Below, in pieces: positions 51,808 through 53,727 of a DNA stretch of 64,000 nt. The notes beneath the pieces are model-generated. The model saw nothing but the letters and a program-made list of their open reading frames with translations. It was not told the DNA's origin and made no database searches. A program made the position numbers and the translations under genes. Within the stretch, counting starts at the first letter, position 1; every line of letters starts with the position of its first letter. The DNA comes from Octopus sinensis (lineage: Eukaryota). The DNA is taken from positions 69,874,001 through 69,938,000 of the forward strand of contig NC_042997.1 of assembly GCF_006345805.1 (NCBI RefSeq), written 5' to 3'.

Positions 51808-52012
51808 ATATATATATATATATATATATATATATATATATATATATATATATATATATATCTATATATATATATATATATATATATATATATATATATA
51901 TCTATATATATATATATATATATATATATATATATATATATACATATATATATATATATAGTGAAGGGAAGAAATGGAGCCGAACGAAGATTCTACAAAA
52001 TTCCTTTTTATT

Positions 52013-52098
52013 ATTTTCTACACATGTTTCAAAGGCTGCAAATTCCCAAATTCGGATTGAATAAGGAGACCATTCTGCAGCTTTCTCTTCAGGAAAAT
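52013..52098 (-). ncRNA. Type I hammerhead ribozyme motif, left arm
   Basis: Mirror of 52351-52436. Stem II GAAAGCUGCA/UGCAGCCUUU. Confidence 0.75.
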
Positions 52099-52350
52099 CC
52101 AAGAATTTAAAATCTCAAAACAAATGCGCAGCAAGCTTTTCGAACAAAACGCTCCCTAGGAGCCCATGGTAAAAATGGCACAAAACTGTCTCTCAATATG
52201 CGCTGACATCAGAGTGGGTGAAGGCCTTCACCCACTCTGACGTCAGCGCATATTGAGAGACAGTTTTGTGCCATTTTTACCATGGGCTCCTAGGGAGCGT
52301 TTTGTTCGAAAAGCTTGCTGCGCATTTGTTTTGAGATTTTAAATTCCTGG

Positions 52351-52436
52351 ATTTTCCTGAAGAGAAAGCTGCAGAATGGTCTCCTTATTCAATCCGAATT
52401 TGGGAATTTGCAGTCTTTGAAACATGTGTAGAAAAT
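52351..52436 (+). ncRNA. Type I hammerhead ribozyme motif, right arm
   Basis: auuuuc-CUGAAGA-gaaagcugca[35 nt]ugcagucuuu-GAAAC augu GUA-gaaaau. Intact core, perfect 6-bp stem I, near-palindromic stem III. Predicted cut after 52430. Confidence 0.75.
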
Positions 52437-53727
52437 AATAAAAAGGAATTTTGTAGAATCTTCGTTCGGCTCCATTTCTTCCCTTCACTAAATATATAAA
52501 ACTTCAATTATCCGCGCTAAAGCACGGGAGCGAAACCCCATGGTCGTAACCTCAACCGTGTCTTTTCTGGTGTGATTTTTGCTACACAGGTATCGGTTAA
52601 ATTTTGAATAATCCGTAACAAGATAATTCATTTATCCATTTCATTAAACATATATATATATATATATATATATATATATATATATATATATATATATGGG
52701 TACATGTATGTATAGCAGTAATGTGTGTGGGAAATCGGGTAAAAGTGTACATTTAATTCACAGATTATGGAAATATTCTCTGCTATGAGTTCTCATTAGG
52801 CAGGAATGCTCTTATATTTGCAGCTTTAACGCATGTTGAATGCACAGATTGAATCTGATGAACCCTTTAAACTATTTAAGCTCATGTTCATTGACGTCTT
52901 AAATTAAACCTTATCGATGATTAAATTTCTATCCATTGAGACGTATCCATTTTGACATCCAGTACAAACCCTCTGGCTATTTATATCGATCCATTTGAGA
53001 ACCTCTGATCTAATATTTATTTTCTGTTTTTTTTTCTTTCGTATATAATTGATAGCGTTTAATCCCAGATCATTCATAAAAAGTAGACATGAACGTATAT
53101 TCTATCAATGGTCTTCCATCTTTCTCTCTTTGTCGCTTATTCAGAAGCACAATGTCTAGCGTGAACTTTACACCGCGATAGATTAAGTTGTACACTTTGT
53201 ACGAGATTTAACTTCTATTTATTGCAGATCGAATGACAATATGCAGGTTCACTCGCCGGTTCTTTCATGTGACGAAGTAAATAGTAGTTGCTGTATAGCT
53301 CGACACACCAGTAACCTTACTGTCTTATATATTTAGTGTCTTAGATATCCTTTGCTGTCACCACATCACTACTACATGTCCTTTATCGAACAAAATTATC
53401 AACTGCTTTTCTGCTGTGACTATACTGCATGTTTTACAGGCTTTGCGTGTCCCAGACTATATTAGCTATTTGTTACTTTTTAAAGAGGTAAGGTTTAATA
53501 TGAATGAAATTTGGCTGCTATTTCCATATAGATTCTATGTCATCGCTTTGAGCTCTGTTCTTTGCTGGGAATTTCTCTTTGGCTAGAATTCATTACCCGG
53601 TATTTCTGTAGGTTGGTTATATGGTAAATTGATTCGGACGAAATGCGATCAATTCTGTATATCTCCATGTATCTTTGAAGATTTGCACCCAAATATAATA
53701 TTGTGGATTAAAACTTATTCTGTTAAT

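Follow-up and report, generated by a model that had tools for sequence, protein, structure and literature searches.

A palindromic insertion in Octopus sinensis and its probable origin from a Hydra-related Penelope-like element

The 532-bp palindrome found in the 64,000-nucleotide stretch of Octopus sinensis DNA analysed here (hereafter the window) is almost certainly a truncated insertion of a Penelope-like element (PLE). It probably represents one 5'-truncated insertion of a Hydra-related PLE into a (TA)n microsatellite, consisting of two head-to-head copies of the 3' end of the element, with both cut ends of the target likely having primed cDNAs. As such, the palindrome corresponds to the inverted-pLTR product already familiar from standard PLE insertion; the value lies in the family behind it, that is, in the arm statistics of its insertions and in a lost cysteine linker.

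The palindrome and its parent element

The palindrome lies between two (TA)n tracts, the target microsatellite (51807-51960 and 52650-52697), into which the ends of the family run. Its left arm (51959-52224, minus strand) is an inverted, 5'-truncated, tail-less copy of the 3' end of the element (the pLTR) that ends at a position termed site A, whereas the right arm (52225-52490, plus strand) is a direct 5'-truncated copy of the same end, whose truncation point coincides to the nucleotide with that of the left arm. The arms meet head to head on the self-complementary word GGCC (52223-52226), which belongs to the element, in a junction unique in the genome. A tail of about 155 nt follows the right pLTR (52491-52649, plus strand), and in full-length copies the start codon lies about 46 nt beyond it. 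The initial annotation, made from the sequence alone, had described a spacer-less palindrome with three arm mismatches set between (TA)n tracts, and this description holds: there are 266 bp per arm and exactly three mismatches, all of them transitions (52241/52208, 52347/52102 and 52414/52035). The extension of ~160 bp that it had called unique is unique within the window but not in the genome, where it is the tail of the element, with 256 exact ends.

The PLE connection that had been raised for the palindrome proved to be direct, as the arms correspond to the 3' end of an autonomous element with reverse transcriptase (RT) and GIY-YIG endonuclease, and the left arm is the inverted 5'-truncated pLTR copy that had been suspected. 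A genome-wide search with the right arm and the extension yielded 2790 first-look candidates, 40 of which were scored, at 93-100% identity. Upstream of the arm sequence, copies continue into a 3' UTR and then into a GIY-YIG-type frame. The full-length copies L034 and L130 are organised as pLTR, leader, ORF, 3' UTR, pLTR, tail and (TA)n; on the 5' side of L130, (TA)n is followed by an inverted pLTR ending at site A, a junction and then the direct pLTR. The L130 unit measures 3673 bp, with a frame open for 906 codons, 902 of them from the ATG. The 902-aa frame of L043 and L130 carries the RT motifs FD, MGS and YRDD and the endonuclease pattern IY..YIG..R..H..E..N, and has 113 homologues at E <= 4e-50, a named one being from Argonauta. 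Pfam and PDB searches with the ORF returned nothing significant, so the RT and GIY-YIG labels rest on these motifs and on the published description in PMC8557442. The window copy has no ORF and would be inert. A MITE or Helitron, considered on account of terminal inverted repeats and a GC hairpin (52512-52530), was dropped, the arms mapping to the RT element.

The family displays the traits of C-terminal EN+ PLEs: RT followed by GIY-YIG, pLTRs in partial tandem, an inverted 5'-truncated copy, a tail at one end and a type I hammerhead in the pLTR. It resembles the EN+ insertion unit described in PMC8557442 and PMC3846280 in the head-to-head inverted copy, the one-end tail, the heavy 5' truncation and the pLTR hammerhead, but its tail of about 155 nt contrasts with the 30-40 nt given in those descriptions. 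The window copy differs further in that both arms are cut at the same base and in that a target duplication is unreadable inside (TA)n.

Near the locus, no host exon was evident in the list of ORFs, which holds unspliced frames. Elsewhere in the window, a 120-aa frame (17303-17665, plus strand) bears the GIY-YIG-like motif NLIYCITC..YIGET..R..H, and is presumably the terminal endonuclease part of a PLE from a different clade. A 150-bp element with terminal inverted repeats of about 36 bp (51020-51170 and 51596-51752), partly duplicated 498 bp downstream, is very deep in public contigs and is thus a high-copy MITE-like repeat. Perfect 68-bp inverted repeats with TG/CA borders surround a (TA)n core at 49109-49312.

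Two fixed ends and the origin of the arms

Tail-less arms of the family end at site A (52481-52498, plus strand; 149 exact ends and 116 exact read-throughs), and tailed arms end at site B, of similar sequence (52640-52653, plus strand; 256 exact ends and 2 read-throughs into the ORF leader). The two sites are 154 nt apart, each contains a short TA-like stretch, and sister subfamilies use the same two end regions. In one sister subfamily (L134-L136, L145), site A is mutated, and tail-less arms there end at the following TA-like stretch, ~10 nt beyond, in keeping with priming by short homology.

Arms were surveyed at the first 100 of the 149 exact site-A ends, a set defined by exact patterns that miss diverged copies, and arm ends were taken as BLAST ends, accurate to a few bases. 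The tail-less arm stood head to head with a site-B arm at 69 of the 100 ends, and at two more the partner exceeded the 2-kb reference. Two further ends belonged to one A+A insertion, five had a partner left unresolved, two did not align, and no partner was found for 20, five of which run off the reference. Among the 69 pairs, the tail-less arm was more than 12 nt longer in 37, including 22 pairs in which the arms had no sequence overlap at all, and the tailed arm was longer in 17. The ends were level within 6 nt in 13 pairs, one of which is the window palindrome, against a permutation mean of 2.0 (13 was reached in none of 100,000 permutations). Four of the six exactly level pairs centre on short self-complementary words. 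At the junctions (n = 69), the arms overlapped by at least 2 nt in 32 cases, bases were inserted in 17, and the join was blunt or overlapped by one base in 20. Several small insertions are tandemly duplicated whole, together with their (TA)n flanks (L011/L012 at G000:C17:26130645-26131704, L075 and L104/L105).

The excess of longer tail-less arms, 22 of them without overlap, excludes simple fold-back copying for most pairs and favours two target-primed cDNAs. In the mechanism that we propose, which is read wholly from end products, the endonuclease of the element would cut both strands of (TA)n; the two 3' ends of the target would start reverse transcription at different places, one at site B and the second 154 nt upstream at site A, with the help of 1-7 TA-like nucleotides in the RNA. 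Each cDNA would terminate early, and the two would become joined head to head, often via a few matching bases. In the window copy, both would have halted at a common point that was probably the 5' end of an RNA they shared, and the cDNA ends would have paired through GGCC, resulting in a perfect palindrome. The hammerheads would be mere passengers, the pLTR ribozyme in each arm having been copied from uncleaved RNA. That two primed cDNAs gave rise to the window copy is, in our estimate, quite probable. L1 twin priming also involves two target-primed cDNAs and joins an inverted 5' part to a direct 3' part; however, the second primer of L1 anneals at variable internal sites, whereas the second site of the window family is fixed and its arms may overlap by hundreds of bases.

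Two target-primed cDNAs would explain the arm classes and would match the start sites and the double-strand cutting documented in vitro for Poseidon PAc, a PLE of Anolis carolinensis. The anole protein is described as cutting and extending both strands, with reverse transcription starting at two sites that bound the tail (PMC11167929), and the two start sites and the AT-rich target are features shared with the window family. According to the same source, PAc is a member of another clade and has its tail within the ORF; its start sites lack homology to the cleaved DNA, whereas short TA homology probably assists priming in the window family. The main text of that paper does not derive the inverted arm from the two sites, and no derivation from two fixed priming sites was found in the open-licence literature.

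The strongest competing explanation, which we nevertheless consider unlikely, retains the same truncated PLE insertion and has the mirror arm produced by self-priming: a cDNA or antisense RNA would have folded back on GGCC and been copied to site A, and the uneven sisters would represent hairpins with trimmed tips. Self-priming on an antisense template was proposed for the head-to-head palindromes of rotifer Penelopes (PMC3846280), and it accounts for the window copy as well as twin priming does. It also draws support from the six-fold enrichment of level-ended insertions, several with short palindromes at the centre, and from the greater likeness of their arms. Yet under self-priming the tail-less arm must fall within the stretch covered by the tailed one, a requirement violated by 37 of the 69 pairs, and the 22 pairs without overlap include some in which the arms miss each other by >600 nt (L178, L180 and L196). 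Moreover, the A+A insertion and the partnerless site-A arms indicate that site A serves as an end even where site B is not used. The level-ended class is where the two explanations converge: for these 13 cases, the window copy among them, the structure expected from snap-back of one cDNA is no different, and the short self-complementary centres of the exactly level pairs are compatible with twin priming and fold-back alike. Uneven trimming of the hairpin during integration is possible. No age trend runs from perfect to uneven insertions. Level and uneven insertions are similarly close to the youngest subfamily (median identity 95.5 and 95.2%, respectively; p = 0.85), and the tail-less arm is already longer in 12 of the 19 youngest insertions, so that later decay of perfect palindromes is unsupported.

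Arm-to-arm differences amounted to 12 of 2052 sites (0.6%) in level-ended insertions versus 78 of 4166 (1.9%) in uneven ones (p = 2e-5), a contrast compatible with repair between arms, with lower age or with another origin. Of the 78 differences in uneven insertions, 73 are not shared polymorphisms, and being mostly private, they indicate that both cDNAs came from one source lineage; two source elements per insertion are, accordingly, unsupported. The level-ended arms look homogenised, which bears on any age estimated from arms. The window insertion is indeed young, as had been supposed, its right arm being 99.5% identical to another copy over 424 nt. Under the calibration of JC 0.09 = 25 My given in PMC13282606, the three differences in 266 bp correspond to about 1.6 million years, a figure with a wide range as it derives from three events only.

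The initial annotation had instead seen a non-autonomous fold-back ribozyme element, and a palindrome spreading as such or as a retrozyme would be in keeping with the hammerhead in each arm, the missing ORF and the young age; non-LTR retrozymes, moreover, are proposed to derive from PLE pLTRs (bioRxiv 10.64898/2026.07.22.740005). This proposal did not survive the genome-wide comparison and now appears highly improbable. The 18-mer at the centre matches one place in the 2.7-Gb genome, which makes the palindrome a one-off insertion product rather than a member of a mobile fold-back family, and the junctions differ between insertions, the exception being two insertions from an older subfamily that have a short palindrome in common. 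The arms, as noted above, belong to an autonomous element. Furthermore, the two ribozymes point away from each other, so no unit-length RNA can be cut out. Non-LTR retrozymes are similar in the type I hammerhead, the relation to PLEs and the lack of an ORF, but they are described as direct tandem repeats that yield unit-length circles (PMC7229834; bioRxiv 10.64898/2026.07.22.740005), whereas the window has one inverted pair and no direct tandem hammerhead units.

Finally, the palindrome might not be real. The perfect spacer-less palindrome is a familiar form of chimera, and this speaks for a fold-back artefact of library preparation or assembly, as does the patchy junction coverage detailed below; we give this explanation very little credence, because the arms differ by three transitions, the two sides have different flanks, the ends coincide with the two fixed sites of the family, contigs cross the junction in three of four runs from two studies, and the same head-to-head design recurs at 69 of 100 sister ends. 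Public data were checked for a single-arm artefact: junction-crossing contigs were present in runs X1, X5 and X11 but no centre-crossing contig was present in X2, and one of the four runs may be the assembled sample itself. The contigs of X1, X5 and X11 pass the centre and stop at 52239, 15 bases beyond it; none has 31 letters on both sides, which is below the 31-letter bridging rule. A stop at this position is probably the expected halt of a 31-mer graph at a true palindrome centre, and an assembly artefact is an unlikely source of the palindrome. In run X11, the junction contig (window 52183-52239) is preceded by 42 unmatched letters similar to the left arm at its hammerhead end, which may reflect an allele with a deletion inside the palindrome. 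No empty target site turned up in the public contigs, a search that passed over repeats and in which no contig covered the full locus.

Hammerhead motifs in the arms

Each arm carries the type I hammerhead motif originally reported, with CUGAAGA (52357 on the plus strand, 52092 on the minus strand), a 6-bp stem I and GAAAC-AUGU-GUA. The right motif (52351-52436, plus strand) comprises stem I (52351-56/52431-36), the core CUGAAGA (52357-63), stem II (52364-75/52407-18), GAAA (52419-22) and stem III ACAUGUGU (52422-29), and its predicted cut after A52430 agrees with hammerhead numbering. The left motif is the mirror copy (52013-52098, minus strand), with a predicted cut after 52019 on the minus strand. 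Stem II, first given as 10 bp, is more accurately described as 10-12 columns with an A.C mismatch, a G.U closing pair and a 31-nt capping region, and is much longer than in any Hydra hammerhead of File S2 in PMC8557442.

Scanning the window on both strands with a hammerhead descriptor returned three candidates, namely the two mirror motifs and a weak one at 15499. An Rfam search found no hammerhead match in 48000-56000 (E <= 1) or in 52300-52500 (E <= 10); Rfam microRNA matches at the palindrome scored below the gathering threshold and were set aside, as any long hairpin gives such matches. A second, older fold-back of another family is located at 15317-15635 (minus strand), with arms 93% identical, a short loop near 15476 and a further copy near 15898-16040; each of its arms holds a word resembling CUGAUGA, without an evident GAAA and stem II to match. 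Additional unrelated motifs resembling type I hammerheads occur at L037:427-810, L101:1661-1759, L044, L095, L123 and L162, one pair of them in a fold-back, implying that the genome harbours several PLE families.

Covariation across genomic copies is present, chiefly in stem II. Among 16 natural variants, 90% of the cells were paired, compared with 38-52% in slid controls, and 7 of 20 stem pairs had changed on both sides, six of these seven in stem II. The variants are related and were picked with a hammerhead-shaped filter, so that conservation of the core does not count as independent evidence. The motif is of the dimer type, as had been suggested: stem III varies among three self-complementary 8-mers, ACAUGUGU, ACACGUGU and ACAUAUGU, which self-pair over 8 bp with -6.0, -10.3 and -7.0 kcal/mol, respectively, although for the window stem III a non-productive 6-bp register is as stable as the 8-bp self-pairing. 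A dimer design and weak cleavage in vitro are described for animal PLE hammerheads (PMC4209133). Free folding of the ribozyme region was no better than that of shuffles (z = -0.09), and the best fold is 2.7 kcal/mol more stable than the active monomer fold. Support for the hammerhead thus comes from covariation and not from folding energy, and cleavage activity is predicted.

A race between self-cleavage and a double-stranded hairpin had been envisaged for transcripts of the palindrome. Transcription in either direction would produce antisense plus ribozyme, but the contest is lopsided, with predicted energies of -513 kcal/mol for the hairpin formed by the whole insert and -13 kcal/mol for the active ribozyme fold. 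As the antisense arm is transcribed before the ribozyme in either direction, the ribozyme would be masked, and a transcript reading through the locus would, by prediction, form a long dsRNA. A look-up of RNA datasets listed none containing the sequence, a result that is neutral on expression.

The predicted cut site is crossed by 56 of the 69 tail-less arms and by 33 of the 37 tailed arms that reach it, as well as by both arms of the window palindrome. The template RNA is therefore mostly uncut, in agreement with the anole element PAc, for which ribozyme cleavage is reported not to be needed for insertion (PMC11167929). Insertions stopping within 5 nt of the cut numbered 3 of 13 among the level-ended ones versus 2 of 56 among the rest (post hoc p = 0.043), which hints weakly at in vivo cleavage by the hammerhead. 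Arm ends did not cluster sharply at the cut site: three 11-nt bins from -228 to -196 held 11, 8 and 7 of them.

Clade placement, target choice and meaning of the arms

The Hydra clade is defined in PMC8557442 by RWK, DKT, the absence of CCHH, and CxxC and CxH in the endonuclease, together with a CxCx5C linker, a canonical hammerhead, a length generally <3 kb and (TA)n targets. Its members there include Hydra-1_Obim of Octopus bimaculoides and Penelope-13_HM, the latter with an inverted 5' copy. The window family shares the C-terminal GIY-YIG without CCHH, DKT, CxxC and CxH around conserved E and N, the canonical hammerhead and the (TA)n target, but it lacks the CxCx5C linker, has RWL for RWK and has a unit of 3.67 kb. 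Hydra-1_Obim is listed at 2507 bp, with a hammerhead sequence unlike that of the window family (PMC8557442). Judging from these motifs, the family is best filed as Hydra-related and not as a member of the Hydra clade, because the linker is missing.

Among 18 long frames from 30 loci, QSDKT was present in 14, including L043, and QSDMT in one; the remaining three include two truncated frames that do not cover the motif. The N-terminal motif is RWL, while among 71 homologues RWK occurs in 32 and RWR in 17. The endonuclease contains CNLC..E and RCPH, and none of the 11 cysteines in the 902 aa is placed as CCHH. CxC was found in the RT-endonuclease linker of none of the 18 long frames, the linker being replaced by an Asn/Ser-rich stretch of 150-164 aa. 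By contrast, CxC-x3-8-C is present in all 71 homologues (of 113) with a complete endonuclease, with the x5 spacing in 61. The Penelope ORFs of Adineta vaga are likewise described as having an in-frame Asn-rich stretch between RT and endonuclease (PMC3846280), but that insert is at least 460 aa long and belongs to a clade without the Cys linker, whereas the stretch of about 160 aa in the window family replaces the linker.

In an RT tree built from three family members and 80 homologues with the linker (one homologue skipped; midpoint-rooted without an outgroup, the homologues bearing Hydra motifs with no named reference among them), the family is sister to the linker-bearing P0001/P0002 with a support of 0.996. 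This position makes the loss of the linker look derived. In a set of 30 loci chosen by similarity and not by flank, (TA)n follows the element end in all, in L026 after a short CA-rich stretch. The Cys linker has been proposed to steer microsatellite targeting, and the family thus appears to keep strict (TA)n targeting despite the loss of the module proposed to confer it. Other Hydra-type fragments in the same genome, at L034:7220-8071 and L038:1811-2269 (both minus strand), retain the CxCx5C linker.

For the formation of head-to-head PLE arms, self-priming on antisense RNA was proposed in 2013, and two start sites were found in vitro in 2024. Simple fold-back is incompatible with the non-overlapping or longer tail-less arms found in more than half of the pairs. 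For the broader generalisation across the 69 insertions, we see the chances as evenly balanced: the inverted pLTR of PLEs would reflect fixed-site twin priming at tail-bounding sites on one RNA, perfect palindromes would mark RNA 5' ends at which both polymerases arrived, a few of them being the hammerhead cut, and (TA)n targeting would be kept without the linker. A 2014 paper reports no evidence for hammerhead cleavage in vivo, and level-ended insertions may record RNA 5' ends, offering a possible readout of such cleavage. The linker-bearing relatives in the same genome provide a natural comparison for targeting, and the intact frames of the family supply a protein suited to a direct test of priming.
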